From NCBI GenBank assembly GCA_900770645.1, contig CAAGKY010000102.1:1053-65052 (forward strand): a DNA stretch of 64,000 nucleotides, in the 5' to 3' direction. The stretch is from Bacilli bacterium. GTDB lineage: Bacteria > Bacillota_I > Bacilli_A > ML615J-28 > CAG-313. Shown here piece after piece: positions 3,901 through 29,945 of the stretch. The position numbers and the translations under genes are program-made. How positions within the stretch are numbered: position 1 is the first letter of the stretch; every line of letters begins with the position of its first letter. Below the pieces are notes generated by a model that did not search any database, had not been told where the DNA came from, and was given only the letters and a program-made list of their open reading frames with translations.

Positions 3901-3911
3901 GAGTGAATTGA

Positions 3912-4157: not shown

Positions 4158-4212
4158 TTTTGAATACTCGTTTAGTCTATAATTTACTGACTAGTACTGA
4201 GAACTAATTTAA

Positions 4213-4246
4213 ATAGCATCATATGAATTCGATGCTATTTTTTTAT
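4213..4246 (+). terminator. rho-independent terminator
   Basis: Stem ATAGCATC/GATGCTAT followed by a T-run. Confidence 0.55.
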
Positions 4247-4343
4247 TGTAAATAGTTAAAAATGAGATCTTTCTATAAATAAATTGGCTAAATTAAATGA
4301 TATTGTTGATAAGACATATAAAAATTCTTTAAGGAGGTTCTAA

Positions 4344-4679
4344 ATGAATAGACTAGAAGAACTATTACTAAAAATAGTCAATAAAGAGCCTATTGGAAAA
4401 TGAGGTTGTGAAAATAGATTAGAGCAATACTTGTTTTGCATTATTGCAAAAGGTACTCCTGAAGCGACTGAAGAGTATGAAAAAATAAGATCATTAGATG
4501 GAAAAGTAGAAATAAACGGATTAGAAGCTTATTTAGATCTTATTTACAATATGACTCCAAATGGAACTAGTGAAATTATTGGCGAAATTATCGCTGCTAG
4601 ACTTGAACAGGTTGACCCAGAACCTACTATAGAACCAGTTGAAGTTATTAGTGGTCGATTAGAAGAAATAAAAGAATAG
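4344..4679 (+). CDS. hypothetical protein; first gene with an in-frame TGA (read as Trp)
   Basis: AAGGAGG RBS before ATG at 4344. TGA at 4401-4403 is in frame. The track shows only the 4431.. fragment. Confidence 0.5.
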
Positions 4680-4689
4680 GAGAAAAATA

Positions 4690-4914
4690 ATGGCAACATA
4701 TAGACTATGATTAACTATTAAGGACAGTACTGGAAAGACTAAAGAGATTGACGGTGGTACTATTAATGTTGATCTTACAAAATTAACTGATTTAGAAGTT
4801 GATACTTTATCTGCTGTTTTAGACCCAATCTACGTTACAGATAAAGAAGTAGAAGAAGTTGTATCAAATGCTGACACTATTAAATACTCTGATTTTAAAT
4901 TAAAAGAAGAATAG
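4690..4914 (+). CDS. hypothetical small protein (one in-frame TGA)
   Basis: GGAGAAAAATAATG. TGA 7 codons after the ATG. Ends at TAG. Confidence 0.45.
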
Positions 4915-4929
4915 TAAGGAGACGTAATA

Positions 4930-7455
4930 ATGATAGATTTTAAAGATTTTAAGATAAAGCGTGGTCCTGCTAAAGATCTTCATAGTCCGAGACTTATCGT
5001 AGAAGAAGGATATTGATATCTAAGTACTGATTCTGCTGAGTTATTTATTGGTATTGTAGTAGATGGTATACCACAATTAAAACCAATTAATGATACTTTA
5101 TTTGAGGCTAAACTAGCAAATTATGCTACAGTAGATTTTGTAAGAGAGGCTTTAGAGAGTATCGATATTCCAGAAATTAGTGTAGACGATTTTGCGACAA
5201 AAGAAGAATTAAATAATAAGGCTGATACTAGTTATGTAGATGAAAAAGTAGCTAATATTGTTAGTTCTGAAGGACTTGCAACAGAAGAATGAGTAAAAAA
5301 ACAAAACTACTTAACTGAGCATATAGATATTTCTGGAAAACAAGATATTATTGATGATCTAGAAGAGCTTAGAATTGGTGCAGCTTTAGGTAAAACTGCT
5401 CTTCAAGAAATTCCTACTGATTATGCTAAGAAGGACGACTTATTTAATAAAGATTACAATGAGTTAATTAATAAGCCTGAAGGATTAGCGACAGAGTCTT
5501 TTGTATTAGAAAAAATAGCTGAAGCTGAAATTGGTGAGAAAGAAATAGATCTATCAGTTTATGCTAAAAAAGAAGATCTATTCAGTAAAGACTATTATGA
5601 CTTAGAAAATAGACCAGATATTCCAGAAGCTTACGATGACAAAGAAGTTCGTAATTTAATTGCGAATAAAGCTGAAAGTTCATATGTAGACGAAAAAATT
5701 TTAGAGATTAATAGTAAAATCGATACCTTAGAGTCACATGAGCCATACGATGACTCTGAGTTACGTGAACTACTCAACGGAAAGTCCGACAAAGATCATA
5801 AGCATGACGAATACATTCAAGATTTATCTCATTTAGCTACAAAAGAAGAGTTATCTAACTATATAACTGAAGATATTTTAAATTCTAAAGGTTATATTAC
5901 AGACGTATCTGAAAAGCAAGATATAATTGAAGATTTAAGTGAAATCAGAGCAAATGCAGAATTAGGTAAAACTGCCTTACAAGCTATTCCTGAAGAGTTT
6001 ATTACAGAATCTGAATTAGAAGCTAAAGGATATTTAACAGATCATCAAAGTTTAGATAATTATTATAATAAAACAGAAGTTGACAATTTAATTAATAGTA
6101 TAGAATTGACTCCTGGTCAAAATGGTATTGATGGAAAAGACGGAGAAAAAGGTGAACAAGGTGAAGCTGGTAAATCGGCTTATCAAATCTGATTAGATCT
6201 AGGAAATACTGGAACTGAGCAAAATTTTATTGATTCACTTAAAGGCGAACAGGGAATCCAAGGTATCCAAGGTGAACCTGGAGTTCAAGGAGAAAAAGGT
6301 GAACGTGGAGAGCAAGGTCTTCAGGGGCCACAAGGTGAATCTGGTAAAGACGGATTAACTACAGCAGTTAAAGTTGGAACAACTACTTATACTCACGAAA
6401 ATGGCGTTATTAATCTTCCTAATTTTGTTGATAGTGATTATGTGACAGAGTATGTAGGCTCTGAACTTGACGATAGAGTTACCACAATAGGTAGTCAAAT
6501 AGCTGCTAATTATGCTACTAAGACATATGTTGATGATGCTATTAATAATGCATTAACTCCAGATAACCTTCCAGATGTGTTACCTGATGTATTACCTGAA
6601 GTTATTCCTACTGCTGTAACTTTAAAAGATTTACAAATTGGCGAAACCTTTACTACAGACGTGACAGTTGGTAAGTTAGAAGCTGGTACAGAGATTAAAT
6701 CAGAAATGACTTTTGGCGAATTATTAAAAGCTGTTTTCGGAGTTAGATGTAATCATGATTGACAAGAAGCAACATGTACTGAACCTAAGACTTGTAAACT
6801 TTGTGGAACTACCGAAGGAGTAGCATTAGGACACAATCCGTTACCAGCGGTAGAAGAAAATAGAGTTGAACCAACAACTACTTCAGTAGGAAGCTATGAA
6901 TCAGTAGTTTACTGTAATAGATGTGATGAAGAACTAAGTCGTGAAACTATTGAAATTCCAATGTTAGCACCTGAAGAACCAGAAATTCCAGAAGGATTAA
7001 TTGGTGATATTATAACAAATAAACGTGAAATGTATGTAGTTAACCACGACGGTTCATTGGAAGCAATTCCGTTTGAAATAAACATTTTATCTGAAGAGCA
7101 AGCAGCACAAGAACCTAATAGATCTGGTTTTTACCAAGTAGTTACAAATGAAGGTAATACTTTAGAAGCTGGCTATCATGATTTATCAGTATTAAATCCA
7201 GAATGAGTTTATATGGTAGTACTTCCTAAAGAAGTAAAAGCAGAAAATATTAGTGTACAAACTTTCTCAGATGAAGATCAAATTTGAGAAGATAGTACAT
7301 TCGAACTTACCAATGATGTAGATATTGTTGCTGACATTTGTGATATTTATGAAATGGATATAAGTGCTATAAATCCAGAAACACACACTGTATGAGTATC
7401 AGTGACTGAGCAACTTTGTACAGGAAGTAAAATAAGATATATAATAACAGACTAA
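4930..7455 (+). CDS. tail fibre protein with a collagen-like G-X-Y domain
   Basis: Single frame of about 841 codons interrupted only by TGA. Contains GQNGIDGKDGEKGEQGEAGKSAYQIW(tga)LDLGNTGTEQNFIDSLKGEQGIQGIQGEPGVQGEKGERGEQGLQGPQGESGKDG. N-terminal motif (KRGPAKDLHSPRLIVEEGYW) is shared with the other fibre genes here. Confidence 0.8.
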
Positions 7456-7476
7456 TGTAAAGGAGCTAAATAATTT

Positions 7477-7902
7477 ATGGCGGTAATGAAAAAAGATCAA
7501 TTATTGTATATTGGGCGTGGTCCATTAGATTCTAGATCGCTAGTCACTAGATATGATGACCTTTTTAAGGATACTACATGAGTAAAAAGTGTAAAAGCAG
7601 ATGATGGCACTACTCAAAACATTTGTGTTGCACATAATGGTATGATTGTAGCTGTTTGACGTAATACTACTGATACCACTAAAAATGGTATTTATTTCTT
7701 ACACGATCCAAATGTAGTAAAAACAACAGTAGACCCAGACTATAAGAATGAAGCAAACTGACATCGCTTAGATAAAAATGATGGCAGTGACATTAGTGAA
7801 GTAATTTCAAGACTCGCAGCTCTTGAAGAAAGCTTTGAAGAACATGCAGAAAGTGCTCCGCAAATCACTAAGATTTGTGGAGGAACCGCTTTCGGTGAAT
7901 AG
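7477..7902 (+). CDS. small structural protein with the shared fibre N-terminal motif
   Basis: AAGGAG RBS. Three in-frame TGAs. N-terminus LLYIGRGPLDSRSLVTRYDDLFKDTTW matches the anchor motif. Confidence 0.5.
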
Positions 7903-7968
7903 TGGTTTTATTCTAGTAATTCTAGATAAAATATATAAAAAGATAAATTTATAAAGGAGAAAGACTAA

Positions 7969-9036
7969 ATGGCACAAACTATTAATACAATTATTGTGTT
8001 AAGAAATGACCAAACAACTAACTGAGAAATCTCCTCTTATGTTATGCTTAAAGGTGAAGTTGGTATTGGTTATTTAAAAAATGGTAATGTTATTGCTAAG
8101 TTAGGTAATGGTGTCGATACTTGGAAAGACCTTCCTCAAATCGAAGGTGTATTCGAAGACGACGTAACATTAACTTATAACTTTGGTAAATACACTATCG
8201 ATTCAACAGTTGGTTATGTAAACGCTGGTGGTAAGGGTATGACTACTTCAGAATGGCTAATTGATGCCTTATCAGTAATTCAAGACCCAAATATTACTCA
8301 ACCTGAATGTTCATTATCAGCTTCTTGCACTGGTTCTGGAGCAGAAATTGGTTCAAAAATTACTAAGATCAATTGGGACGGAAATACAACTTTTGGAGAA
8401 TACGAATACGGTCCAGAAACTGGTTTAAGCGAAGCTAATAGAACTTGAACAATTTCTAATAATATTAATGATTTAACTTCTGAAGACGAAGATGGAAGTT
8501 TTGTAGTTGATATTCAATTAGATCAAGAAGCTAGTAAAACATATGCAGTGATTACTGGTAAATGCGTTTTAGACGCTTCAGAAGCTGCTTATGCAAAAAA
8601 TAATGTTGGTGCAACAACTACTTTACGCGTAAGTGGTTTAGATATTACTAAGACCGCTAATGCTACTGCTACAGCTTATAGAAAACCTTTCTGAGGCGTT
8701 CTTACTCCTGAAAGCGTAATTGATGTTGAAAACTTAACAAGTGAAATTATTAGAGGATTACCACAAAGTGGAACTTCAACAAAAGGTTTACCAAAATCTA
8801 TTTCAGTTCCAGCAGGAACTCAAATGGTAATCTTTGCTGCAAAAGCTGGTGCTTATAGCTCATTAACTGCTACAGATGATAAAGCTATGAATGCAACAGT
8901 AGGATTTACAAAAGTAGCTGATGCAGTTCAAGTTAAAGGTGCTAATGACTTTACTGCAACAGCCTACGATATTTGGTATGTTGACTGGCAAGCTGGTATT
9001 GGTTCAGCTAAACAATTAACATTAAAATGGGCATAA
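7969..9036 (+). CDS. fibre or baseplate-like structural protein (shared N-terminal motif)
   Basis: AAGGAG RBS. TGAs at conserved W (RNDQTTNW-EISSYVMLKGEVGIGY...KLGNGVDTWKDLP). One frame through 8448 and 8700 to TAA at 9034. Confidence 0.6.
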
Positions 9037-9058
9037 TTAAGAAAGGGGACAAAAGATA

Positions 9059-11572
9059 ATGGCAAAAAATTATACAGAAATTCTTGCTTTAGCTAACAAG
9101 AATAACATAGGCTTATCTAATACTATTAAACGTGACTATGGTATTCCTCTAGATTATAGCTCTGTTCAAGAAAGTTATGAAAAAGCTTTAGAGTATGCAC
9201 AATCAAGTACACTTGCATACATTGGTCAACCAATTTCAGTTGGTGACGTTCTTTATGTAGTTACTACTCCAGAAAATGGATACTTAAAACAAGTTGGTGT
9301 TAAACCAGTTGGTGATGAAAAATCAATTGAAGTATCTGAAGAAGGTGTTGTATCTATTTATGGTTTTGAAGCTGCAGGCGACGCAACACTTCCTAGAAAG
9401 AATTCAGACGGTTCAATTTCTTGGATTACATTAGCTGATATTGCAGGTTCTACTGATACAAATACTAAAACAGTTGTTGCAGTTGCAGAAGATTCTGATA
9501 TTACTGTAAATTATTCTTACGATGAAGAAACTGATACTAGAACATATACATTAGATGTTCAATTCCCTGCAATTCCTGAGTATTCTGTTGAAAAAGTAGA
9601 AGGTGAAAATGAAGTTACTTACAAAGTAACAAAAGATGGTGTTCAAGTTGGTGAATCAATTGTAGTTCCTAACGCATTCGACCCATCTGAAATTTTAGAA
9701 TCAATTGAAACATTACAAGGTTACTTTACTGAAGGTGAAGCTAACGTTGCAGTTGAAGCTAAGGGGTATGTTGAAGGTGCAGCTATCGATTTAGAATTCA
9801 AACGTTTAGCTGGTTTAATTAGCGGTTTAGCTGGTGTAGACACAGATTTTACTAAAGAATTAGAAGAGTTAGAAAATAGCTTTAAAGCCTTCATGGAAGG
9901 AAACGGTGTAGAAGATGTTATCGATACATTAGCGGATATCAAAGCTGCAATTGAAGCATTACAAGCTCATGCTACTGCTTATGAAGCAAAAGTTGATCAA
10001 AATATTGAAGACATTACTGCTATTAAAGGACGTTTAGATGTAGTTGAAGCTATTGAACATCATGAACATGAGAACAAAGCTGAATTAGACAAAATCGTTG
10101 AAGGTGATGTTGAAAAATGGAATAGCTTATATAACTATGACGATTCAGAAGTTAGGGGATTAATTGAACCAAAAGCAGACAAATCTTACGTTGATGAAGA
10201 ATTAGCTAAGAAAGTTGATGTTGAAGGCTATGTTGCTTATTCTCAAGAAGAAAAAGAAAAATTAGCTGGTTTAGAAAACTATAACGATTCTGAATTATCT
10301 GGTCGTGTATCTATAGTTGAAGGATATTTTGCTGAAGGTATTGCAAATGACACTGCTAAATTAGGTGGACAATTACCTGAATATTATGCTTCTAAAGCAT
10401 CTGTTGAAGAAGCAATTGCAGGTGTTCATAACCATGAAAATAAAGATATTTTAGATGGTATTTCTACTGCAGATATTGAAAACTGAAATGCTGCTGAACA
10501 AAATGCTAAATCTCATTCTGATAGCAAACTTAGTGAAGCTGTTAAAGCTTTAGAAGGAAAAATTACTGCAGAAAAAGAAAGAGCTGAAGGTATTGAAGCT
10601 GATTTTGAATCTAGAATCGGTGTATTAGAAGCTAAAGAACCTACTAAAGTTGAAGCTTCTGAAGAAAATGGAAACATTTTAGTTGATGGTCAAGAAGTTA
10701 AAGTTTATGATGATGCAGAATTAGTTGCTAGATTAGAAGTTGTTGAAGGTAAACCATTTGACACTTATGCTGTTAAATCTGAAGTTGAAGAAGCTTTAGC
10801 TGGTAAAGTAGATAATGCTACGCTAGATAGCTACTATACTAAAGGTCAAACAGAAACTAAGATTTCTAAAATGATTTCTGACATCAACGGTGGTGAGTCT
10901 GCTGGTGAAGTATTAAGTCAATTAAATTCTTATAAGACTTTAAATGACGAAAGAGTTGCTGCAGTAGAAGCAAAAGATACTGAACAAGATGCAGCAATTA
11001 AAGCTAATGCTGATGCTATCGAAGTATTAAATGGTTCAGGTGAAGGTTCAGTTGCTAAACAAGTTGCTGAAGCTATCGCTGAAGTTGTTGCAGAAGCTCC
11101 TGAAGCATTTGACACATTAAAAGAAATTGCTGATTATATCGCTGGTGATAAAACAAATGCTGCTGAATTATTAAATAAAGTAAATGCTAATACTGAAGCT
11201 ATTGCTGCTGAAGTTACACGTGCTGGAGAAAAAGAAGTTGAATTAGCTGGTTTAATTAGTGGTTTAGATGCTGCATATAAAGCTGCAGATGAATTATTAA
11301 TTGCTGAAGACGCTAGATTAGCTGGATTAATTGGTGCAAATGCTGAAGCTATCGCTGTATTAAACGGTGATGCTGAAGGTTCAGTTAATAAGAAAATTGC
11401 TGATGCAATTGCTGCAGTTCCTGCTGCTACAGCTAATACTTTAGGTTTAGTTAAACCTGGTGAAACAATGTCTATTGATGCTGAAGGCACAATCAATGTT
11501 GCTAAAGTTTCAACTGATATGTTAGAACAAGGTCTACAAGAATTAGTTCTTAATGGAGGTTCAGCTAAGTAA
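9059..11572 (+). CDS. long fibrous Ala/Glu-rich structural protein (about 837 aa) with internal repeats
   Basis: Single frame across TGA at 10484. Repeated LAGLISGL and NG(S/D)(G/A)EGSV(A/N)K(Q/K)(V/I)A(E/D)AIA motifs. Predicted coiled coil. Confidence 0.65.
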
Positions 11573-13414: not shown

Positions 13415-13436
13415 TAATTTATAATTAAAAAAAATA

Positions 13437-13469
13437 AAGAGTAGACTTATTTTGAGTCTACTCTTTTTA
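13437..13469 (+). terminator. rho-independent terminator
   Basis: Stem AAGAGTAGACT/AGTCTACTCTT followed by a T-run. Confidence 0.6.
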
Positions 13470-13545
13470 CTATAGGATTAAAAAATTTGCTAAATTATAC
13501 GAACAGCTTGTTTAAAAGCGTATTTTATAAAATAAGGAGTAACTT

Positions 13546-16500
13546 ATGCTAAAAATGATTGTACAACATCGCAGAGGTACGACTGCTGAATGAAAATTAT
13601 CTACAGTAATTCCACTAGAAGGTGAACTTTTAATCGAAGAAACAGTTTCTGATGGAATTAAACTTAAAATTGGTGATGGTAAATCAGGATTCTTAGGCTT
13701 ACCTTATATCACAGATTTACTATCTGATAAAATTACTGCCGCTGAAAAAGAATTGAAAAATGTACAAAGCACTGTTACTGATAATGAAGTTATTAGAAAA
13801 TTAAGAAAAGATTTATCTGACCTTGACACCGAAATTAATCTCTTAAATAGAGAACTAGTAAAAGTTCAAAAAAACGTTGGTGACAAGACTATTAACCCAG
13901 AAACAAACGAAATAACTTATTCTGGACTTCATGCACAATTACAGACAATTAGAAACAGTGTTAATATGTTATCAAATAGAATTAGTGGTTTTACATCTCT
14001 TGAAGAAGGTAGTGTGACAGGAGATGCTGAATTACTAGATATTAGACATGGATTTAACGGAATCGACTATTCGTCTGCTGGAGACGCTGTTAGAGCTATT
14101 GGAGACGAATTACAAGCTTTTAAAGATGCTCTTCCTAGTTTTATTCCTGATAATGCTGTTGATGGATTATCTTATGAGAATAATAAGTTATATCTAACTT
14201 CTCAAGGTATTCAAGTAGGTGACGCAGTAACAATTACAGGAGGTGGCGGCGGTGGCAGCACATCTAGTACAATTATCACTTTAAAGAATAATGAGGGAAC
14301 AACTTCTAATATGTCTGTTTCAAAAGGAACTAAAGTAGAAATTAGTTTTAATTTTAGTTCTATTGAAGAAGGCGTTCCTACAGGAGACGGCGTATATAAT
14401 TTAGAAGTAAACAGTAACCCAGTTGAAACAAATGTTCAACTTTCACAAGGTAATAAGACAATCGATTTAACTAAATATTTAAAAGCTGGAATGAATAGAG
14501 TAAAACTTACTTGTTTCGATTATACTGGTTCTTATAAAAGCTTAGCTTATACGATTAATTTAATAGAGTTATCTATTGATTCATCTTTTGGCCCAAATAT
14601 AAATGATATTACTATATTTGAAGCTGACAATGCGGATGAAAATTTTGTTAGCGTAAATTATAATTATACTACTTATGGACAAGTTACAAAAATTGCTCAT
14701 TTCATATTAGATGATCAAGAAATTACTAATGCAGAAGGAAAACCTCTAATTCAATCACTAGGGGCTGGTGAAAAATCTTCTTCTATTAAGTTTAAGATTT
14801 ACGGACATGGTTGCCATAAATTTCAAGTTTATCTTACAGCCACAGTGAATAATAAAACTATTGAGAGTAATAAATTAACTTATAATATTTTATGTAATTT
14901 ACCAGATCCTGAAGCTACTAGACATCCAGCGATGATCGATTCAGTTTTCGAGATTACTAAAGCGACTCAAGGAGATTTGTTAGAAATACCATACAGAGTA
15001 TATGACCCAAATACTGGTCAAGTAACTGTAAATCTATTAGTTGGATCTGGAACAAAAGATAATTATGTAATAGATGAAAAATTATCTAAAGAAGAATTTG
15101 TCGGTAGAACAAAGCAAAAATGACCGATAAAAAATTATCCTATTGGAAATACTGTATTTATTATTAAATGTGCTTATCAAGTATATAACGAAGAAGGTAT
15201 ATTAACAACATATTATGCAGAAAAAATTCATGAAGTATTTGTAGAAGCACTAGATATTCCAGTAGAAGCTGAAACAGCTAATTTACAACTTTGATTAAGT
15301 GCAAACGGAAGATCTAATGCTGAGCTTAATCCTGCAGTATGAGAATATACTCAAACTGTTGAAACTGCTAATGGAATAGAAGAATTAGATACTATTAGAA
15401 CAACTTTTTCTAACTTTAACTGAGTTAATAACGGATGACTTTCTGACGTTAATGGTGATACTTGTTTAAGATTAAATGGTGCCGCTAAGGCCGTAATTGA
15501 TATTAAACCATTTGAAAAGAACTTTGTTAATACAGGTAAAACTTTTGAATTTGATTTTGTAATTAGAGACGTAAATAATCGTGATAGTACTGTAATTAAC
15601 TGTTTTAGTGGAAATAGAGGCTTTAAAGCTACTGCTGACACTTTTACATTCAGAAGTGAATCTGTTCAAATGTCTTGTAACTATAAAGACGTAACATATT
15701 TAACAAAATTAAATGATAAAACTCAAAAAGAAGAGACTATAGAGCAACTTGAACGAACAAGAATTTCTATTACTATTGCTCCATCTAGTTTAATCGCAGA
15801 TAATGCACCAGATTTGAACACTTATTTTATCTCGATGTATATTAATGGTATTTTATCTAATTGTCAAAAATATGGTGGAATAGATGAAGGATTTACTCAA
15901 AGTAATCCAGTAAAAATTTCTTTAGGTTCAGAAGACTGTGGATTAGATTTATATAGTATACGTATATATGATAGTGCACTTTCTCATAAAGGAATTGTTG
16001 ATAATTATATTGCGGATAGTGCTAATGGTCCAGATAAAATAGATTTATATAGAGAAAATAATATTTATTACGCTGATTCTGAGTTATCAGATCAAATTTC
16101 ATATGAAAGTTTAAAAGGAAAAATTCCAATTGTCACTTTTACTGGTAGAATGCCAACATATAAAGGTGATAAAAAGACAAATTCTGTGCTAATGAAGTTC
16201 GAACATCCAGAACATCCAGAGCTAAATTTTGAAGAAGTATTAAAAGAAATAGACGTACAAGGTACTTCTTCTCAATTCTATGTTCGTAAAAACTGAAAAA
16301 CAAAACATTACGACAAGCATGCTCATATGAAAGGTGAGATTCCAACTAAGGTTTTCTGTTTAAAAGTTGACTACGCTGAAGCCACTGGTACTCATAATAC
16401 TCAAGCTGCAAATTTTGTAGAAACATTATATAATCGTTCTGAAGCTCTTTTACCACCACAAGAAAAAGATTCTAGAGTTCGTTCTACGATTACTGGTTTT

Positions 16501-19500
16501 CCATGCGTTATTTTTGAAAAAGAGACTGCTTCTTCTCGACCAGTTTTCTCAGCAAAAGCAAACTTTAACTTTGACAAAGGTTCTGAAGAGGCATTTGGTT
16601 TTACAGAAGATTATGATGTAGAATCTTGAGAATTTTGTAATAACACTTCAGGTGCATGTAATTTCTTAGAAAAAATTAATACCGAAGCTTGAGCAGCTGT
16701 TTATAGATTATCAGGTGCTACTGAGAATACGTCTATTACGATTACGGCTAATTCTCCTGAAGAGGCTGAAATTATTGCTCGTGAATTATTAGCTACGAAG
16801 TCTTCTGAAGATGCTCAATGAGTTAATGCTAAATATATTGGTGTACATCCTTATTGATTAACTGACTTTGAAGCTAGATATGCTCAAAATACTATGAAGT
16901 ATAGCGATGGTTCTACATTTAAATTTGATAAAGATGAAATGTTCTCTATTGATAGATTTAAAGAGATGCATGATTGAGTTTGTGATACCGCAACAGTTAT
17001 GTACGCTAAGCCAGAAGCTAAGGATGGCTACTGATGAGTAGGTAATAAAAATACTGGATTTGAAATTCTTACAGACGATGATGGAAATATAATTCAACCA
17101 GAGATTATTGAAGACGAAGCAACAAAATCTAAGAATTGATATATTAATGGAGTAGATTCAAAAATATCTAGTCTTGATATCGTTCCAATAAATGTATTCC
17201 CTTTACCTAAACCTGTGACTATTGGAACAGTTGAATATAGAGAAGATAACGTAGATTATCGTAGAGCAAAGTTCGTCAAAGAATTTACAAACTATTTTGA
17301 TGAACACTATGCAGCGGTTTATTATGTATATACTTTTGTCGCATTAATGACCGACCAAAGAGCCAAAAATATGTTCTTAACTTATTGAGGTGAGACTGGT
17401 AAATGATATCCATATTTCTATGATAATGATACTTCTTTTGGTATCAATAATGAAGGTGCTCTTGTTTTCGATTATTATCATGAAGATACTGATACATTAG
17501 ATGGTGCACTAGTTTACAATGGTCAAAATAGTGCATTATGAACAAACTTTAGAGAAAATTTCGAAGACCTAGTTTCTTCAACATATCAAAACTTAAGAAA
17601 TAATGGTAAATTAGATTACGAAAAATTTGTAGAGCAATTTATTAATTGTGGAGCTAAGAAGTGGTCTGCATCTATTTATAATGCTGACGCAGAATATAAA
17701 TATGTGTCTATGGCACGACCTGACAATTTAGGAAACTTTGATGCTGCAAACTTATATCAAGTTAAAGGTTCTGCTGAACAACATTTTAAATACTTTGTTG
17801 CAAATAGATTAAAGTATTGTGATAGTAAGTGAAACTGTGGTGACTACCCGGACGACAAGATTTTCTTACGTATTTATACTCCATCTACAGGTGATAATGC
17901 TATTTTAAATGAGCCAAAACAGATTGACGGATATTGATGGATTGATGGTGTAAACACTGGATACTTAGTTAATACAGATAGCAGTGATCAAATCATAATT
18001 CCAGAAATAAGTGAAAATAATACTTGGATTCTAAATAAAGGTTTAGAAGATCAAGAAATTGATACAGAGATAGAGGTTAGATACGGAAAAGTTGAATTAG
18101 CAGTGGCACCAAATGCTAATATTAGTTTAAAAACATTTTCAGATATGTATGCAGGTGTTAAATACAAAGCAAATGGTACGTTATTAAGAAAGAGAGTTAA
18201 GAAAAATGTAATGTTAACTGGAAAAGACGCATTTATTCCTCCAAAATCAGCTAACGGTTTATCTGAAGTATTTAATGATACTGAAACTGCGATTTATGGT
18301 GCGAGTGAAATTTCTTCTCTTGGAGACCTATCTGGACTTTATTGTGGTGTTATTGATGTTTCAAAAGCTACGAAGTTAACTGAACTAAAAATTGGTAACA
18401 GTACTACTGGTTATTTTAATGATAACTTTAGAGATATTCAATTAGGTAATAATAGATTATTGAAAAAAATTGATTTAACAAATTGTCGAGGTTTAGGAAT
18501 CGCTGGAAAAAGCCCTCAAAAATCTTTAAATGTATCAGGTTGTCCAAACATCGAAGAAATTTTGGTTAAGGGTACAAGTTTAGAATCAATTAACTTGCCA
18601 GCTTCTGGATATATTACAAAACTTGAATTACCAAATACTTTGACAGGTCTAAATATTAGAAATCAAATGTACTTAACAAATAGTGGTATTTTATTGGACG
18701 ATTATTCTAAACTTAAAAAATTACGTATTGAAAACTGTAAAAATATAGATACTTTAGCTCTTCTTAGAAATTGTATAGATAGTTCGAATAACTTTACAGT
18801 TGAACGAATCAAATTAACTGGAATAGATTGAACATTTGATGATCCTGAATTCTTATTATCACTTATGAGTATTAAAGGTATGGACGCAAATGGTTTAGAT
18901 ACTGATCATGTATATCTTGGCGGACATGTTCACATAAAAGAACTTACTGGAGCACAATATACTCGAATATTTGATTACTATAATACTTATCACACTAATG
19001 AATCACTTTTAAAAATTACTTTTGATCGTATGACATCTTATGTATCGTTCTATACTAACGTAAAAGATGGAAATGGAAACTATATTCCATTTACATTCTC
19101 AGATGGAACACCTTGAATCCAAGAAGTTACAAATACACTAAACGATAAAGGAGAAATTGTTCGTAATACGACTGATCCAACAAAAGTTCCTTATTTATAT
19201 GATGGAAAAGAGGAAAAATTACAAACTCCAACTCAAGAAAGCACTATTGAGTTTTCTTATGCATTTAATGGTTGAACACGTACGCCTAATGCTCCTGCTC
19301 AAGTAGATGCATTATTAGACGTTACAGGTGATCGATCTGTTTATAACGCATATGTAAAAACTATTAATAAGTATCCAGTTCAATTTTATACTTATGGTTG
19401 AGATGGTCCAGAGTTATTAAATACGGTTATGACTAATTATGGTGAAATTGCAGAGTATTCTGGTGATACAGCGTTACTGATTAAAGGTAATACTAGTGTA

Positions 19501-20871
19501 CCAGAACGATATGAATTTGTAGGATGATCGCCTGAACCATTAGTTAAGCCTACTACTTTTGATGAAGTTATTAAGACTTACGCTCAGTTTAACTTAGTCG
19601 ATCGAGATGAAGACGGAGATATTTCTGATGAGTGACATATTCCATTACTTGGTGATATTAATTACTCTATAGATGACACTTCAAAGAAGATGAATATTAC
19701 TGCTTACTATAATACTAGTGAACCATTAGTTTATATACCAGAATCTTATTTTATTGGAGACGAGGAATATTCTGTTTACGAGGTTGGTGGTTTTAACGCT
19801 ACAAATGTAGAACATGTTAAATTAGCTGAAGGAATAGAATCTATTTATGGACACCCAATAAATGGAGCATTTGCTGGTGCACAAAATTTAGTTGAAGTAG
19901 ATTTACCAGAAAGTTTGACTACGATTAAAGACAAAGCTTTTTCACAAACTCCTAGATTGACAGAATTATACATTCCAAAAAATGTACAAAGGATCGAAAG
20001 ATCAATTTTAGGTGAAGGTGGACATGTGAAAAATATTACCGTAGATAAAGATAATAAGATCTACGAAGCTATAGATGGATGTTTATTGGGACCTTATTCT
20101 TTATATTCTGCAAATGGAAAAGAGAATGAAAAGATAGTTCTTGCATGTAACACTAATGATGCTTTACCAGACTCTGTACAAGATAAAAATATTGTATGTA
20201 TAGGTACAGATGCATGTAGACAAAATCATTGTACCGAAATAACTATACCCAATACAGTTAAAATATTAGAAAACTTTGCTTTCTTTAGTTGTAAGAATCT
20301 TAAAAAAGTTAACTTATCTAGTAATGTTGAAGAATTTGGATCTGGAGCATTTGGATATTGTGAAAACTTAGAGTCTATCACTTTACCAGAGACTTTAGTT
20401 CAATTATCAAACCATGCGCTAGTTGGATCAAACCTTGAAGAAATTATTGTGCCAGCAAATGTAAAAAATATCTCAATCGAAGCCTTTAGTAAATGTAAAA
20501 ATCTTAAAAAGATTACTTTTATGGGTAAACCTGATAAGATTTCTTGGTCTATACTCGCAGATTCTGGTCATGAGGATGGCTTAGAGATCTATGTAGCTTG
20601 AAATAAAGAAGATAATCGCACGATTGGTGCTGGAGATACTGCCAAACTAGGTGACCCATATACTGCTATACCTTGTGCTTGAGGTGCAGGAGCGCCTATG
20701 CCACAAACACTTGATACAGAATCTGATTATGCCTATAACCGAGAAATTAAGCGTACTCGTAATGTAAAAATTATTTATAAAAATGGTGAAGAGCAATTAT
20801 TATTAGCAGGCGAAAAAGCTTGACCTGATTGATCAGCTATTTCAACATTTATAGATCGAGGAGACAATTAG
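13546..20871 (+). CDS. giant multidomain virion protein (about 2441 aa): fibre N-terminal motif, CotH kinase-like domain, LRR and BspA-type LRR
   Basis: I checked frame continuity across every junction; there is no in-frame TAA or TAG from 13546 to the TAG at 20869-20871. More than 20 in-frame TGAs. CotH-like DQRAKNMFLTYWGETGKW(tga)YPYFYDNDTSFG. LRR region 18100-18830. BspA-like LRR IPxxVxxIxxxAFxxCxxLxxI at 19690-20600. Confidence 0.7.
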
Positions 20872-20872: not shown

Positions 20873-21565
20873 ATGTATAAAATAATTTATAATAACAAAG
20901 TTATTGAAGTAATTGAAAATCCAAAATTTATTCGATTTTTAGCTAAAGGTCATGTTGGTATTACTAGTAAGTCAGATGCGCAAGGAGTAATCAGTGAAAA
21001 TAGCTCTACTGTATATCGTTTTGATTATAGTGCTCAGACAACTAGAAAAAATATTCTTGATATTAAACTTGAAAGAATTTCAATAGAAGAATTTAGAAGA
21101 TTAGAACATCTTCTAAATTCTGGCAAACAGCCAGACGCAGACTTATCCGCACTATCTGTTGCAAAAAGAAATAAAATTTCAGCATTATCAGAAGAATGCA
21201 ATAGACAAATTATCTCAGGAATTAGCTTAGTCTTATCTGATAATCAGATACATCAATTTAAATTGACAATAGAAGACCAATTAAACATATTATTGTTAGA
21301 GAACCAATTAAACTCTGGTATAACTACGTTTGTTTATCATAGTACCGGTGAGCCTTGTAAAGTATTTAATAAAGAAGACATGTATAAAATTATTTCTTCT
21401 ACTAGATCTCATATTCAATATCACACAACATATTTTAATTTACTAAAGCAATATGTTAATACATTAGTTACTTCAGAAGAAGTTCAAAATATTTACTATG
21501 GAATAGACGTAGAAAAAATTTCTACTGATAAGACCATGAAGACATTTTTGCGAACTTTAAAATAG
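20873..21565 (+). CDS. hypothetical protein, possibly a fibre assembly or chaperone protein
   Basis: ATG overlaps the giant ORF's stop (TAGTATG). No TGA. Confidence 0.45.
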   Translation: MYKIIYNNKVIEVIENPKFIRFLAKGHVGITSKSDAQGVISENSSTVYRFDYSAQTTRKNILDIKLERISIEEFRRLEHLLNSGKQPDADLSALSVAKRNKISALSEECNRQIISGISLVLSDNQIHQFKLTIEDQLNILLLENQLNSGITTFVYHSTGEPCKVFNKEDMYKIISSTRSHIQYHTTYFNLLKQYVNTLVTSEEVQNIYYGIDVEKISTDKTMKTFLRTLK

Positions 21566-22018: not shown

Positions 22019-22771
22019 ATGGCAGAACAACGCATTGATAGGATTCGAATTCAGATGAAGCGTGGATCTAGCTTAGATTGGCACAAAGCCAGTGAAGCTA
22101 CGACTCCATTTATTCCAAAAGAAGGAGAATCCATTTTTTATACTGACATGAACATGCTAAAAATTGGTAATGGGACAAGTACTCCAGACCAATTACCTTT
22201 TTTAGATGTTGAACATCCAGATGAAACTTTTAAAACTTTTGCAGTGTCAAATTATGACTGCGATAAATGTACAGAAGCTGGTGTGTATTTAATTTCTGGT
22301 GGAACTGATACGCCAGAAAGCTATGTTGGTGGAAATTTACTAGTAATTCCAAATACTGACTACATCACACAAATGTTATTTGTTCCAGGAAATGCTGCAA
22401 ACATTCGTGGTACAATGTTCTTTAGATACTACATTAATAAAATTTGGACAACTTGGGAACAAATCACAACATCTAAACATGTTCATCAAATTACTTTTAC
22501 TCCAACTGGAACAATTAGCTCTCCAGATATTATAGTGTCTGTTGAAACAGACGATGTAATAGGTAATTTTGTACCTGGATCTGGTAGTGCTAGTTTAGGA
22601 GTAGAAATTGATCACAAAAGATTATCTTTTGCGTTACAACATTCTCATGTAGCTTCAACTACTAGTACTAAAACAGTTCTTACTGCGGCTACTGCGAGAC
22701 TTAAGGATGCACCAGTATTTACTGGGACATCTACAACTATTGGCACAAATAATGCTATAGAAGAAAAATAA
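22019..22771 (+). CDS. fibre-like structural protein (shared N-terminal motif)
   Basis: N-terminus RIDRIRIQMKRGSSLDWHKASEATTPFIPKEGESIFY...KIGNGTSTPDQLPFL. Confidence 0.6.
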   Translation: MAEQRIDRIRIQMKRGSSLDWHKASEATTPFIPKEGESIFYTDMNMLKIGNGTSTPDQLPFLDVEHPDETFKTFAVSNYDCDKCTEAGVYLISGGTDTPESYVGGNLLVIPNTDYITQMLFVPGNAANIRGTMFFRYYINKIWTTWEQITTSKHVHQITFTPTGTISSPDIIVSVETDDVIGNFVPGSGSASLGVEIDHKRLSFALQHSHVASTTSTKTVLTAATARLKDAPVFTGTSTTIGTNNAIEEK

Positions 22772-22805: not shown

Positions 22806-24995
22806 ATGGCAACCGTTAAAACTGTTATTGATTCGTTATTTTACACCAATCCTGCTAATGGTGATGTAACAGAAGCGAACTTTACCTTACCTTTTGGTAC
22901 ATGTGAAACTGCTGCTGCTACTGCAGCTAAAGCTGTAACATGTGCGAACTTTGTAGCTTTAGAAACTGGAGCTTCAGTAGTAGTTAAATTTACTTATGCA
23001 AATACTGCTTCTTCAGCTACATTAAATGTTAATAGTACAGGTGCTAAAACTATTAAAACTTCAGACGGTCAAGCTTTATCTGGATCAAACTTAAGTCCAT
23101 GAAAAGCTGGCGATATCGTAAATTTTGTTTACGATGGTACTAATTGGCGTAGTTATGCTGCAATCACTAGAAAAGATTTAGTAGATGCAATTGCACAAAA
23201 TGACGCATTAACTTACAAAGGAACTATTCCTGTTAGTTCTACTGTAGATATTTTCCCAGAAACTTTCCCATTAGCTGTTAATCGTGGTTGAACTTATAAA
23301 GTTGCAGCTGCAGGATACTTAGGTTCAGTTAAAGTTGAAGCTGGTGATATGATCATTTTCAATACAGACTGTGATGGAACAAATACTAAAGCAAATTCAA
23401 CTACATACTTTGATGTAATTCAAGGTAATATGGATATGAAAGCTTTAGAGGATAAATTCTCAGAAGCTGATCATACTCACTCTTATTCTCATACTCATAA
23501 AGTATCTCATACTCCAGCTGGTACAAATGAGAATACTTCTATTACTCCAAAAGGTAGTGTTGTAAGTACTTTTAGTGGTAATACTGATACATTAACTGGA
23601 GCAGTTACAACTAAGTCTGCTGGTGGACATACACATACATTTACTGGTACTGCTGCAGAACATGACCATACTTTTGCTGGATCTGCTGCAACAATCTCTG
23701 TTAAAGGCACACCTACTGGATCTGTTTCTAGTACTTCAGTGACTCCAGATGGAAATATCACTGAAGTTACAGTTGACTCAACTCATACAGCAAACTATAC
23801 TCCAAAAGGAAGTATAACTGCAAGTTTCTCTGGAACTGAAGCAAGCCATAATCACTCATTTACTGGAACAAAAGCAACTTTATCAGTAGATTATACTCCT
23901 GAAGGTAACAATGCTGAAGTTACTTTAACTCCAGATGGTGTTAACTCAGCTGTATCACACTCTCATACATTAGATTTATCTGGTAGTTTTACAGGAATTG
24001 CTGCAACGATTACAAGTTCTGAAAAATTTGTTAAGTCTGGTTCTATTGGAAATGCTGGTGGTCATACTCCTACTGGTACTATCTCAAGTACTACAAATAT
24101 TCCTAGTGGAAAAACTGCAAACTACACTCCTGCTGGATATGTTCCTCAAACTAGTATTACTGTAGGATCTAATGATATAGTTTCAGCAGTAACAAGCGTA
24201 ACACACGGAGCTGGTTCACACGTACACAATCCTGCAACTTTAACAATGAGTGCTACAAGTAAAAAATTATCTATTACTTTTAGTGGAGGTTCTGGTTCAC
24301 ACTCTGATCCAACTGTATCTACAACTACAGATAACGTAATAGGTACAGCTACTACTTTCAACCTTCCAAAAACAAATCTTACAGGTACTCCAGCATACTT
24401 CACTTTTGCAGGTACAGCTGTAGCTGATCATACTCATACATTTAGTCCATCAACCGAAAATGTTTCTGCTAGTTATACTCCTACTGGTTCTGTATCTGTG
24501 TCTGGTACTGCATCGTCAGATTCTCATACACATACATTTACAGGAACTACTGCTGCGCATACTCATGCATTTACTGGTACTGAAGCTACTTTAAGTACTG
24601 AATATACTCCAGCTGGTTCTATTGGAAACAAAGCTATTACTCCTGCAGGTACAGTTAGTGCATCATTCTCTGGTACTGCAACTCATTTAGACTTTGTTGG
24701 TATTGCCGCATCTCATGATCATACATTTACTGGTTCAGAATTTACTTCTTCTGGTTCTTATACTCCTGCTGGTACAATTGCTAAGACTTCTATTACTCCT
24801 GCCGGAACTCTTGACACTCAAGGTAGTCATACTCATGATGCTACATTAGCTATGGATGGATATACTCCTTCTGGAACAGTTTCAAGTACATTTACAGGAA
24901 CAGCTGAAGAACATACTCATACATTTACTGGTACTGCTGCAACAATTACTACAACTGATCAATCTGCTACTACAACAAGTGCAGCAAATAAATAG
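22806..24995 (+). CDS. tail fibre with tandem His-x-His repeats (T4 gp37/gp12-like phage fibre repeat)
   Basis: One frame across TGAs at 23100 and 23289. About 14 repeats of GxHTHTFTGTAA/SHxHxFTGT. N-terminus GTCETAAATAAKAVTCANFVALETGA is shared with the 25161 gene. Confidence 0.7.
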
Positions 24996-25160: not shown

Positions 25161-27137
25161 ATGGCAAATAAAGTAATTGATTCCATGACATATGGAAGCG
25201 ATACGTATACGATTTCGACGCCTTATGGAACCTGCTCGACTGCTGCAGCAACAGCAGCTAAAACTGTAACATGTGCTAACTTCGTAGCATTAGAGACTGG
25301 AGCAAAAGTTACAGTACTTTTTACTTATGCTAACTCAGTTGCAAATCCTACTTTAAACGTAAATAGTACAGGTGCGAAATATATTTTATATAGAAATACT
25401 AAATTAGATACTTCAGCAGAATATTGAAAAGCAAATGATACACTTACTTTTGTATATGATTCTACTTGAAGTTCTAATACTGGTGCTTGAAGATTAGAAG
25501 GTCATTTAGATACTGATACAAATACTAACACAACTTATTCAGTAACTACTGGTGACAATAATGGTCAAATTAAAGTTGCACCTAGCGGTGGAACTGCTTA
25601 TAATGTGAATGTTAAAGGGTTAGGATCATCTGCTTTTGTACCTACTTATAAGGCAGCTGAATGCACATCTTACTCTTCAGATGATGGTAACTGTACACCT
25701 GCAGCTGTAAATAAAGCGATTACTCAAGGAATTTTTCCAGCTAACTCTACTGCTTATGGTACAATTAAAGTATCTTCTGTTAATTCTTCTGCAGTTACAG
25801 TAAATAATGAATCTTCAACTGCTGGAAGATATTATCCAATAGAATTAAATAGTGATGGAAAAGCTATTGTAAATGTTCCTTGGACAGATACTGACAATGA
25901 TACAACATACTCAGCTGGAACTGGACTAACTAAAACTTCAACTACTTTTAAAGCAAACTTAAGAAGTGAGACAAAATTAACTAATGATTCTGCTGCAGCT
26001 ACTGAAGTTGCTAATAGAGTTTATCCAGTAGCGGTAGATAAATCAGGGTACTTATCAGTAAACGTTCCTTGGGTAGATACTAATACTCACGACGGTAATG
26101 ATAATCAAAAAGTTAGTGCTGGAACTACAACTTTTGGTATAAATGATACTGTTAAGTTTGTTGCTGGTAGCAATGTTACGATTACGCCTGATGCAACAAA
26201 TAAAACAATTACAATTAGTTCAACTGATACTAATACGGACACTAACACATCTCATGATCACACTGCGGGCACAGGATTAATTATTAGTGGTAGTGGTGGA
26301 ACATCTGGTACGACAACATATTCAGCAAATCTTAACAGTACAACATCTTTAGGAACTATTGGAACCACATCTAAGCTTTATGCTGTTGGTGTAGATGCTA
26401 ATGGTAAATTATGTGTAAACGTTCCTTGGACAGATACTAATACTGATACTAATACTCATTACACAACAGGTTTATATGTTGGAGCTAGTAATGCAAAATC
26501 TAATGCAGCTACTTCTAATGGTGGAACATACTTAAAACTGTATGACGACAGTACAAAACGTGCTGAATTTAAAATTACTGGGTCTGGTGCGACTACAGTA
26601 ACTTCTGATTCAAGTGGTAATATTACTATTAGCTCAACAGATACAAACACAGATACTGGAGCTACTAGTGTAGAAGTTACTGGGTCAGGTAATGCAGTAA
26701 CTGCTGCTTCTTATGATGCGTCTTCTAGAAAAATAACTCTAACAAAAGGCACTACTTTTTTAACTTCACATCAAACAATGTATTATAGACCTATTCGAGT
26801 GAATGGTACTCAAATTTTAGCTAATACTTCAAGTACAGCTTTAAACTTAAAAGCTGGAACAAACGTGTCTATTAGTAATTCTAGTGGAACAGTGACAATT
26901 AGTGCAACTGATACTAATACATGGCGTGGTATCCAAGATAACTTGACTAGTACATCTACTACTGAGTCATTAAGTGCAAATCAAGGTAAAGTATTAAAAG
27001 GATTAATCGACGGAAAATCAGACTCTGGTCATACTCACACTTCAGTTAATGGTTATACTATTACTGTTTTATCTCAATCTTCTTGAAATAGTCTTTCTTC
27101 TAAATCGTCTTCGACAATATATTTTATAACTGCATAG
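25161..27137 (+). CDS. paralogous fibre protein with VNVPWTDTNT repeats
   Basis: Same N-terminus (GTCSTAAATAAKTVTCANFVALETGA). Repeats Y(P/A)V(A/G)VD..G.L.VNVPW(T/V)DT. One frame through five TGAs to TAG at 27135. Confidence 0.65.
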
Positions 27138-27147: not shown

Positions 27148-28389
27148 ATGGCAGTAAAAAAAATATATAAAGGATCGAGTGTAATAAATAACCTATCTGT
27201 TGGAAGCACAGAAGTTAAAAAAGTAGTTGTTATAAATAGTAGTGGTACTTCTAATACTGTTTATGAAAAAGATTTTGATACATACATTACTGTCGTAACT
27301 CCTGCTGGGACAGTTATAAACAAACAAATGGTGACAGCTGGCACAAGTCTTACAACGTCTACTCTTCTTGGTAAAGTACTATCTTATAAATCTTCTGAAT
27401 ATACATCTAATAATCTATACTATTATGATGTACCATGCGATATAACTGTTACACTCTACGATGAAAATAATCAAGTAATTAGGAATATTTTTACTACCGC
27501 TGACGATTTCTATGATGATTTAGCTTCTTATAATTGTGCTACTTCTGGAACATATTATCATATAAAAGCTGAAGTAGAATCTACTTCAAAAGTCGCAGTT
27601 ATGCTTAATATTGATGTTTATTATTATATGTCTTTTGCGCTTTCTGGACTAGTTTTTACTAAAAGTTATCATAAAGGCTCGACATATTCTCAAATTATTA
27701 ATGATTCAGGAAGACCTTCGAGTGAAGTTGTCACTACTGGTGGCTGAAAATATTCTTATTATTATCATCATTTAAGATATGACGACGATACGTCATCTAC
27801 TATTAGCTCTTCAGATCGTATTTTGTCTAGTAGAGCTGTTGAGTATTATTATGCGTATGATCTAGAACAAGTTGACACTAGCGCAGATGGCGCACCGACT
27901 TATTCTGGAGTATTCTTAAAGGCAAGTGATGGAACGTGGCAAACAGTTTTCTCTTGTAGCGGAAACTCTTACGGCGCTATTTATGGAACAGTTAATGCGT
28001 CTGGATCAGACGGTGCTTATAGTGGATATACTTATTCTCTTTTGCTGAAATTCTGAATTGTAACTCCGCCTGGGACAAGTGAAGGTAAAGGATGAAAAGT
28101 TACAGTATATAGTAATAGACAATATATAACTAGTGATGTAACTGCTTTTGATACTTCAAGCGGCTTTATTTTTCCTGGAGTAAACTCAAGAGGTACAGGA
28201 TTTAATAATGTTCGTTTAGGAACATACCAACAAGGTTCTCACAATCTTGGAACAGGGTGATTAAAATTAAAAGCTGCTGGAACAGATATTGTTGGAAGTC
28301 TTGGTGTTGAAAATCAAGAACTTACTAATAACTGTACTATTTATTGAGATGCTAACAACAGTAATTCATCTTCTGGAGGAGGAGACTAA
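27148..28389 (+). CDS. structural protein, unknown function
   Basis: One frame through TGAs at 27745, 28054 and beyond. Stop TAA overlaps the next start (TAATG). Confidence 0.55.
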
Positions 28390-29945
28390 TGAAAAAAAAT
28401 TATTTATACGATCTTGTGAAAGATGCAAAAAGCAATATATTAAATCATTTTGAAGTATTAAAAAATCAGTATCCAAATATTTTAAATTTTAATTCTTTTA
28501 ATGAGTTGCTAGAGAGAGTAAAATCTAAAGAACTATTAGATGCAATTAAAAAATTAATTTCTAATTTTTCTTTTGACGAAAATACAAAAAATATTTTGTT
28601 AAATCGTCTTGATGATACTGAAGATAGAGATCCTATTGTTATTGGGATCACTGGAACTGTGGGAAAAACTTCAATTGCTTATTTACTTAGCGAATATTTT
28701 AAAGCGTATGGAAAGAAGGTAACTCTTCTTTCTAGCGCTGAAATAGATAATCCAATACTTTCTATTTCAAAAAATTTTCCAATTGACGTTCCAATTACAT
28801 CTTTAGATTTTTTAAAATACTTCATAAAGGAAAGTTTAAATTATAATAGTGATATAATTATTATTGAAGTATCTGAAGAAGCTCTTAAAGACGGCAGAGT
28901 TGATGGTATACCTTTTGATATTAAGATTTTATCACATTTTTGGTCTACATGGTTATTTCCTGACACTTCTGAAGAGAATTATTTTCAAAACAAGAGTAAG
29001 TTTTTTGAAAAAGAAGATGACGTAATGTATTTTATTAATAATAATGCGAAAATGGTTCGTAGATTTATTGATAAAGTTAAAAATTATAAACTATTTGGTG
29101 CAAGAGTAAATAGTCAAGATATTAAGAATGAAGATACTAATTATATCGAAGAGCATTTATTTCAAAGTATAAAAAATCAAGCATATGTTATAAAAGGAGA
29201 AAAAGGTTCTTATACTTTAAAGAGTAAAAATATGTTTGGTACTCATCATATGGTTAACTTAACTTGTATTGTTGGAGTACTAGAATATTTAAATATGTTA
29301 GATACAGATATTTTAAGCCAAGTTCTTTGCTCAACAAAAGTTCCAGGTAGAGAAGTAATTACTGCAGGTGATAGAACATTTATTGTAACACTTAATTATT
29401 TAAATGAAATTAATTTTATTCGTGAATATTTAGCTAAAGAATATTTTGAAGAAAATGCATTAGGTGAGTCTTTGTTTAACGAGAAATTTAATTGTGAGAT
29501 AAATAATATAGTATTACTTGACGGTATAGAAGGATTTTCTCCAAATTGAAAAACTAGAAGTGGAAAACCTTTGACTGAAGAATTATTTAGATCTATTAAA
29601 GAGAGAACAAAGAGTGATTATAAGAGATGGAAGTCATTAGGTTTTGATGGATTATCTAAAATTTATTTAACTCCAAATAATCCAGGTCATGCAGACCCAG
29701 AAGAACTTGTTGAATATCTTCGTGAATTATACGAACCATCGCAAAAACCGATTACTACTATTTCTGATAGACGAAAAGCTCTTCAACAAGTTGTATTTGA
29801 CTCTGAACCTGGTGATATTATTTTTATCTCTGGTAGAGGTAATTTCCAATATTATGAGTTAAAAGATGAGACTTTATTCTTTACAGATAGTGCGATAATT
29901 ACAGATACAATAAAGAATTTACCTTGAAGTAAAGATTTAGCATAA
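28389..29945 (+). CDS. Mur-ligase-family protein (MurE/FolC/CapB-like nucleotide-binding domain)
   Basis: P-loop VIGITGTVGKTSIAYLLSEYF. Single frame through TGAs at 29547 and 29925 to TAA at 29943. Confidence 0.55.

Follow-up and report, generated by a model that had tools for sequence, protein, structure and literature searches.

What does a stretch of DNA encode when the standard genetic code breaks it into some thirty pieces, and reading a single stop codon as sense joins these into one frame of more than two thousand codons? The question is raised by positions 13546-20871 of a 64,000-nucleotide segment, here called the window, of contig CAAGKY010000102.1 (positions 1,053 to 65,052, forward strand; GenBank assembly GCA_900770645.1, Bacilli bacterium). 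An earlier note on this DNA proposed a single open reading frame (ORF) of 2441 amino acids with a fibre-type N-terminal domain, a CotH-kinase-like segment and two sets of leucine-rich repeats (LRRs). We consider it likely, and hold with good confidence, that the region is one gene encoding a giant modular tail fibre, or adhesin for receptor binding, from a large gut phage that reads TGA as tryptophan late in infection and probably infects Clostridia.

Reading frame, meaning of TGA and pattern of recoding

Under translation table 4, frame 1 of the forward strand consists of 2,441 sense codons and thus forms a single gene of 7.3 kb, as the note had claimed. The frame contains 30 TGA and four TGG codons, no TAA and one TAG, the terminal codon at 20869-20871. 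An overlooked in-frame TAA or TAG was looked for and none precedes 20869, so that the statement that TGA alone interrupts the frame stands as well. The two alternative frames of the same interval contain 150 and 224 TAA or TAG codons, and shuffled versions of the gene (n=200) contain 155 in frame on average and never fewer than 119. Compared with this expectation, the complete lack of internal TAA and TAG is not explained by chance. The closest in-frame stop upstream is TAA at 13540-13542.

The TGA codons of the window gene fall on tryptophan columns in an alignment of eight relatives and the putative tail fibre of Hankyphage (Bacteroides phage p00); proteins in standard code with tryptophan at these columns include the Hankyphage protein and P0031, a Parabacteroides protein from NCBI. 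The closest relative, L002, is 92.8% identical at the DNA level and encodes a protein (P0001) of 2,441 amino acids, 94% identical to the window protein. Its gene has 27 TGA and seven TGG codons. Between the two genes, 25 sites are TGA in both, five change from TGA in the window to TGG, two change from TGG to TGA and two are TGG in both, with no other partner codon. An orthologue in standard code, P0006 (2,527 amino acids), is carried by a 122-kb ENA contig, L003. It is one ORF with no TGA and 21 TGG codons, its TGG codons stand opposite 16 of the window's 30 TGAs, and the neighbouring genes keep the order of the window (833, 589, [giant], 229 and 84 amino acids). For the pair of window and L002, the ratio of nonsynonymous to synonymous substitution rates (dN/dS, Nei-Gojobori) is 0.10 for the whole frame and ranges from 0.04 in the N-terminal domain to 0.25 in the LRR_5 repeats at the C-terminal end. 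These comparisons show that TGA stands for tryptophan in the giant gene and that purifying selection acts on the frame as one gene.

Recoding is uneven along the window. In a list of 51 genes, built with TAA and TAG as the sole stops, TGA occurs in 17 (33%), and 34 use TGG only, with up to 11 TGG codons per gene. The ratio of TGA to TGG is 58:30 in the fibre block at 4344-29945 and 16:99 in the 38 genes elsewhere (Fisher p=2e-14), and the bias persists when the giant gene is removed (p=4e-7). Outside the fibre block, TGA is found in two homing-endonuclease-like genes (Endonuclease_7 and NUMOD3), a membrane protein gene with four TGA codons and a Holin_LLH gene. The listed genes end in TAA (37) or TAG (14) and never in TGA, which is not an independent test because the list allowed the first two only. 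Borges et al. described TGA-recoded gut phages of standard-code hosts, whose recoding affects structural, lysis and homing-endonuclease genes, and the pattern in the window matches this phage-driven recoding of late genes.

Three other readings of the TGA codons have to be considered. Tryptophan columns, swaps between TGA and TGG only and the dN/dS of 0.10 together exclude for practical purposes a pseudogene, code 25 and selenocysteine. We leave next to no probability to a decayed or fragmented gene, or to several small standard-code genes ending at the TGAs. Table 11 does cut the frame into 31 pieces, eight of them of at least 60 amino acids (roughly the nine fragments counted in the note), and in some relatives from metagenome-assembled genomes (MAGs) the homologous region is divided over several frames. 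Nevertheless, just one of the three stop codon types occurs in the frame, at conserved tryptophan columns, and the low dN/dS extends over all pieces; the standard-code orthologue is one ORF, the CotH fold and other domains span several TGAs, and many of the pieces have no start codon or no context of a ribosome-binding site. Equally negligible is decoding of TGA as selenocysteine or as glycine, the latter known as code 25 from Gracilibacteria and Absconditabacteria and used by their phages: tryptophan is the commonest residue at every window TGA site with aligned residues, the others are mostly tyrosine or phenylalanine and glycine never appears, while the close relative exchanges TGA with nothing but TGG. 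A host that itself uses code 4, i.e. a Mollicute as the note implied, would make TGA=Trp the host code and dispense with a late switch imposed by the phage. The clear meaning of TGA, the G+C content of the window (31%) and the stop codons of the gene list, with the reservation given above, would agree with such a host, which we still regard as very improbable. TGA is concentrated in the fibre block and two thirds of the genes lack it, giving a recoded fraction far below the ~90% reported by Borges et al. for phages that share an alternative code with their host and within the 26-71% reported otherwise. The phage also carries its own Trp/Tyr-class aminoacyl-tRNA synthetase. Relatives in species-representative genomes come from MAGs of Oscillospiraceae, Faecalimonas, Acutalibacteraceae and Clostridium, all pointing to Clostridia, and one relative appears to be TAG-recoded. 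The syntenic relative in standard code in L003 lies near a peptidoglycan hydrolase gene (Amidase_2/Glucosaminidase), indicating that the host of this relative has a cell wall. The Mollicute context is thus not supported.

Domains of the giant protein

The fibre-type N-terminal domain was correctly recognized in the note: Pfam Mtd_N matches above its cut-off (Table 1), and PHROG tail fibre families match the same end of the protein. The N-terminal motif recurs at the N-termini of the genes starting at 7969, 11627 and 22019 and weakly in that starting at 4930; the gene at 22019-22771 scores 28.2 bits with Mtd_N, and neighbouring genes have collagen or coiled-coil features of fibres. Because the motif is common to these genes, the giant gene appears to be one of several sister fibres. 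The heptad-rich segment that follows is probably a coiled-coil stalk: the family profile matches coiled-coil proteins and relatives carry precomputed PF01442 annotations. It is far shorter than the stalk of about 500 amino acids in most relatives. In the adjoining β-rich core, residues 571-855 resemble by eye a concanavalin/LamG-type sandwich, a likeness that no Pfam match confirmed.

The central domain is predicted to have the fold of the CotH atypical kinases. An AlphaFold model of this segment of P0001 has a mean predicted local distance difference test score (pLDDT) of 79 and a predicted template modelling (TM) score of 0.79, and Foldseek pairs it with CotH of Bacillus cereus (5JDA/5JD9; probability 1.0, TM score 0.72-0.74). 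In the alignment of residues 856-1470, the Pfam CotH model (PF08757) matches 9 of 23 relatives at E<=0.1 (lowest E 3.9e-14). The CotH-like call, placed in the note at about 17340-17470, proved correct, and it needs this evidence from fold and family. Its motifs are DQRAKN at nucleotides 17353-17370 and YDND at 17419-17430, with W1287 between them encoded by TGA. Residues D1270, K1274, N1275, Y1292, D1293 and D1295 are invariant in both the 23- and the 20-sequence alignment; W1287 is invariant in the latter and nearly so in the former. QGTSS 905-909, K915/N916 and K940/D942 are further invariant residues of the region. The spacing of D1270, W1287 and D1293 (D-17-W-6-D) equals that of D228, W245 and D251 of CotH, of which D228 is the catalytic and D251 the metal-binding aspartate as quoted second-hand for Bacillus subtilis.

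A second model, covering residues 1500-2441 of P0001 (pLDDT 81), shows a solenoid of short strands, β-rich linkers and the LRR_5 solenoid. The internal solenoid is conserved throughout the family, Hankyphage included. The note had assigned LRRs to 18100-18830; a solenoid does lie within this interval and an LRR-like reading is plausible from the model, but Pfam LRR models found no match there. The linker domains resemble Listeria-Bacteroides repeats by eye, without a confirming Pfam match, and are poorly conserved beyond close relatives. At the C-terminal end the BspA-type LRRs, expected in the note at 19690-20600, are borne out by Pfam and by PDB profile and fold matches to the BspA-type surface proteins 4gt6, 4cp6, 4fs7 and 4h09. 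This end, presumed to be the distal, ligand-binding tip, is the fastest-evolving part of the giant gene and lies where the Hankyphage homologue has its diversified lectin.

We propose the following explanation. The N-terminal domain and the coiled coil would anchor the giant protein to the tail, beside sister fibres with the same N-terminal domain, and the LRR_5 tip would bind a ligand on the host surface, in place of a C-type lectin tip, which in the Hankyphage homologue is diversified by a diversity-generating retroelement (DGR). The 230-amino-acid gene directly downstream may act as an assembly partner. Late in infection the phage would switch the infected cell to decoding TGA as tryptophan, for which the synthetase in the window is a candidate component; a suppressor tRNA encoded outside the window would also be needed. 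The first TGA is codon 16, so that unsuppressed translation would end after 15 residues and no product would arise before the code-change machinery is active, which would tie expression to late infection.

Strict conservation of the CotH-like motifs argues that an enzymatic or nucleotide-binding role has been kept, and the domain probably keeps phosphotransfer or nucleotide-binding activity. Whether this makes the giant fibres enzymatic appendages, with a catalytically active phosphotransferase borne on the tail and modifying a substrate on the host surface or on the phage, is a speculation that we think unlikely to be right. Were it true, the enzyme would act during assembly or adsorption, and the 30 TGA codons, including that of the putative adenine-stacking Trp1287, would hold it strictly off until the late switch of code. 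Still less probable in our judgement is that the giant protein is primarily an enzyme or effector, carried in the virion or acting inside the cell, in which a CotH-type kinase modifies proteins or glycans of the phage or the host and the LRRs recognize the substrate. In favour of such a role, the CotH-like catalytic motifs are invariant in the alignments sampled from a family that numbers about 5,500 clusters; the bona fide CotH spore-coat protein of Bacillus is an active kinase, and Benler et al. count the CotH family as a third kinase family of phages, "currently unstudied". However, the fibre N-terminal domain, the coiled coil and the neighbouring fibre genes point to a tail appendage, and the C-terminal modules, which are swappable (LRR_5, DUF6273, DGR-diversified lectin), show the behaviour of receptor-binding tips. 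Neither role excludes the other.

Several points weigh against the tail-fibre reading or its parts. On the window protein itself the Pfam CotH model scores 15.2 bits, below its cut-off of 23.8, and both structure models are those of P0001 (93% identical in the CotH segment) and not of the window protein. Comparison of a profile of the CotH region, and of the single relative P0104, with PDB sequences found no CotH. The putative equivalence of D1270 and D1293 to the catalytic and metal-binding aspartates is deduced from spacing, and the numbers quoted for CotH residues may combine those of B. subtilis with those of B. cereus. The protein is predicted to be a tail fibre from the homology of its domains and from the genes beside it. 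The decoding agent was not seen: the 64-kb window has 12 tRNAs, and none of these carries the anticodon UCA. Finally, assignment of the host, probably to Clostridia, draws solely on MAG bins and types of lysis genes.

Relatives and genomic surroundings

Megablast of the giant gene against 50,697 phage records gave no match. About 20 full-length relatives of 2,250-2,780 amino acids, 35-62% identical, have the same overall layout; more distant ones retain the core and have their ends swapped for DUF6273, BppU_N or SLH domains. A profile of the CotH-like domain collects 5,500 clusters at 50% identity, 1,999 of them with E<=1e-30, and the top 150 are mostly proteins of 1.5-2.9 kaa (thousand amino acids). 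The CotH-fold model matches 18 entries of BFVD at E<=1e-3, with phage proteins under names such as "CotH kinase protein" (gut Siphoviridae), "spore coat protein-like" (crAss-like cr124_1) and "internalin-like" (crAss-like cr52_1). A tblastn search matches gp353 of Bacillus phage G, also present in BFVD.

The Hankyphage protein is about 30% identical to the window protein over residues 571-1797, and its gene follows one annotated "minor tail protein". It is a DGR target with the variable repeat (VR) at its C-terminus and is regarded as a tail fibre in the literature. The description of a giant host-interaction protein of gut phages, given in the note, fits these homologues. Mtd_N and the homology to Hankyphage suggested that the window gene might also be diversified by a DGR. 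This reading was rejected: no pair of template repeat and VR touches the giant gene, no reverse transcriptase is present among the window proteins scanned, and the C-terminus is LRR_5 and not a lectin.

In an Acutalibacteraceae MAG contig (L006, JAZNWP010000048.1) a homologue at 2512-10604 is broken both in standard code and in code 4, and becomes open for 1,975 + 722 codons once TAG is read as sense. The giant gene family thus seems to have members in genomes recoded at TAG, in genomes recoded at TGA and in others that keep the standard code. In four other MAG contigs (L004, L005, L007 and L008) the homologous region came out as 3-5 ORFs in differing frames, whichever code was tried. The genes may truly be separate there, or frameshifts or errors of assembly may have split them.

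Table 1. Positions of the giant gene, its predicted domains and associated features in the window
Feature	Position	Strand	Evidence and remarks
Perfect hairpin, terminator-like	13436..13466	.	Terminator scan; stem 12 bp, loop 7 nt, G+C-poor
Shine-Dalgarno-like AAGGAG	13534..13539	+	Read from sequence; 6 nt before ATG at 13546
Giant gene, predicted tail fibre/adhesin	13546..20871	+	2,441 codons, 30 TGA read as Trp, stop TAG 20869
Mtd_N-type fibre N-terminal domain, aa 6-47	13561..13686	+	Pfam PF18454, 30.7 bits, cut-off 26.3
Heptad-rich stalk, aa ~57-148, approximate boundaries	13714..13989	+	Inference from sequence
Conserved β-rich core, aa ~210-855	14173..16110	+	phrog_14959 and phrog_24896, function unknown; in nearly all relatives
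Predicted CotH-kinase-fold domain, aa 856-1450	16111..17895	+	Model and family alignments; two lineage-specific insertions at aa ~1040-1215
Putative active-site block	17353..17430	+	D1270-Q-R-A-K1274-N1275 ... W1287 ... Y1292-D1293-N-D1295
Internal β-solenoid, LRR-like, aa ~1581-1730	18286..18735	+	Model; short strands every 11-22 residues
β-rich linker domains, aa ~1755-2020	18808..19605	+	Model; F/Y-x-G-W motifs
BspA-type LRR_5 repeats, aa ~2089-2349	19810..20592	+	Pfam PF13306, 127.7 bits, cut-off 27.7, E=3e-37
230-aa gene, candidate fibre assembly partner	20873..21565	+	Starts 1 nt past the stop of the giant gene
Class-I Trp/Tyr-type aminoacyl-tRNA synthetase, 329 aa	43134..44123	+	tRNA-synt_1b, 1e-71; TGA-free

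The hairpin upstream of the giant gene has runs of T or A on either side and lies between this gene and an upstream fibre-like gene, whose stop is at 13414. A scan for sigma-70 promoters in the giant gene region returned 45 sites compared with 49.6 in shuffled sequence, and no promoter is claimed. The candidate assembly partner has a DUF4376 match of 20.1 bits, under the cut-off of 25, and a weak match to phrog_1348 "tail fiber protein"; its syntenic counterparts encode 230 amino acids in L002 and 229 in L003.

The first fibre gene of the window (4930-7455, 841 amino acids) combines collagen repeats with a cysteine-rich C-terminal part. At the same position the 93%-identical relative L002 has a gene of only 444 amino acids (2538-3872), which suggests cassette-like exchange among the sister fibres. 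Directly downstream of the fibre genes, two proteins with related N-termini (22806-24995, 729 amino acids, and 25161-27137, 658 amino acids) consist of repeats rich in Thr, Ser, Gly and His (HTHTFTGTAA...; TDTNTDTNT...); a PHROG search found no match for them. Neither a terminase nor a capsid gene is present in the window.

The synthetase is the first gene of a translation-related cluster, nearly all in standard code (43134-45086). It is followed by a YspA/SLOG-domain gene (44124-44510) with one in-frame TGA within the domain and, two genes downstream of the synthetase, by a homologue of ribosome hibernation factors with S30AE domains (44520-45086). The two homing-endonuclease-like genes, Endonuclease_7 at 36634-37386 and NUMOD3 at 50751-51731, have four in-frame TGA codons each, are surrounded by TGA-free genes and have in common a 115-nt repeat of 70% identity.

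Elsewhere, a conserved A+T-rich intergenic element of about 66 nt, ending in TATTGTATAATATTATGTAA, occurs in eight copies between 32266 and 45498, upstream of genes in the TGA-free block, and resembles an early or middle phage promoter with an extended -10 motif. The interval 47080-49250 (about 2.2 kb), bordered by tRNA genes, has no ORF of at least 100 amino acids in either code and a G+C content of 0.35-0.38 compared with the window mean of 0.31. The Rfam DUF3800-XI RNA matches at 47706-47752 with 53.6 bits (gathering score 37.8), and the interval may hold structured RNAs. Some accessory genes are unusual for a phage: one with a TROVE (Ro60-like) domain at 34136-35794, a Mur-ligase-like gene with two TGA codons at 28389-29945, a DFP/CoaB-like gene at 38715-39527 and a proteasome-subunit-like Ntn hydrolase gene at 52560-53228.

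Comparison with known systems

Recoding of this kind and the giant architecture of CotH plus LRRs have both been described before, so that the present find confirms known biology and does not extend it. The giant gene adds a TGA-recoded member, tipped by LRR_5 and independent of a DGR, to a very large family of CotH-fold fibres of gut phages. Within the family the tip varies (LRR_5, DUF6273, DGR-diversified lectin), in contrast to the catalytic-looking core motifs, which are invariant in the sampled alignments. The locus also illustrates how gene calling in standard code shatters what a recoded phage expresses late: one gene of 7.3 kb falls into 31 pieces and its identity is lost.

As in the code-4 gut phages of Borges et al., TGA is found in structural and lysis genes and is absent from early genes, and its presence in homing-endonuclease-like genes matches the preferential recoding of intron endonucleases which they reported. 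TGA was not seen as a stop in either case, although the gene list used here allowed TAA and TAG stops only. Two clades were named by these authors, "Agate" (~127 kb) and "Jade", the latter with a module of tryptophanyl-tRNA synthetase, release factor 1 (RF1) and suppressor tRNA. The window phage is similar to Jade in encoding a synthetase of tryptophanyl type; unlike in the Jade module, neither a suppressor tRNA nor RF1 was found in these 64 kb. Borges et al. could detect a suppressor tRNA in only 35% of code-4 phage genomes.

With CotH of Bacillus (PF08757; 5JDA/5JD9) the window domain appears to share the fold, the D-x3-K-N motif and the (W)-x5-D spacing. It differs in being only 8-9% identical, in having two large insertions and in being part of a 2,441-amino-acid virion-type protein. 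The CotH-fold phage entries in BFVD, in turn, are mostly of 700-1,400 amino acids or split, unlike the window protein. Residues ~2089-2349 are like the BspA-type LRR proteins of Bacteroides ovatus (4fs7), Faecalibacterium prausnitzii (4gt6) and Eubacterium ventriosum (4h09) and PcpA (4cp6), with E-values of the family profile down to 1e-56. Those are cell-surface proteins of gut bacteria, whereas here the LRR_5 module would tip a phage protein.

Among the closest known counterparts are the Hankyphage fibre and a group of DGR variable proteins of Bacteroides. Macadangdang et al. (2024) described this "group 3", whose members exceed 2,000 amino acids and contain LRRs together with motifs of the CotH active region and of carbohydrate binding. 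The window protein and the Hankyphage fibre have in common the β-rich core, the CotH-like domain and the internal solenoid, in a similar size and modular layout. Unlike the Hankyphage fibre, the window protein begins with Mtd_N and a predicted coiled coil, is encoded with 30 TGA codons and ends, instead of a C-type lectin with a variable repeat, in a BspA-type LRR_5 tip.

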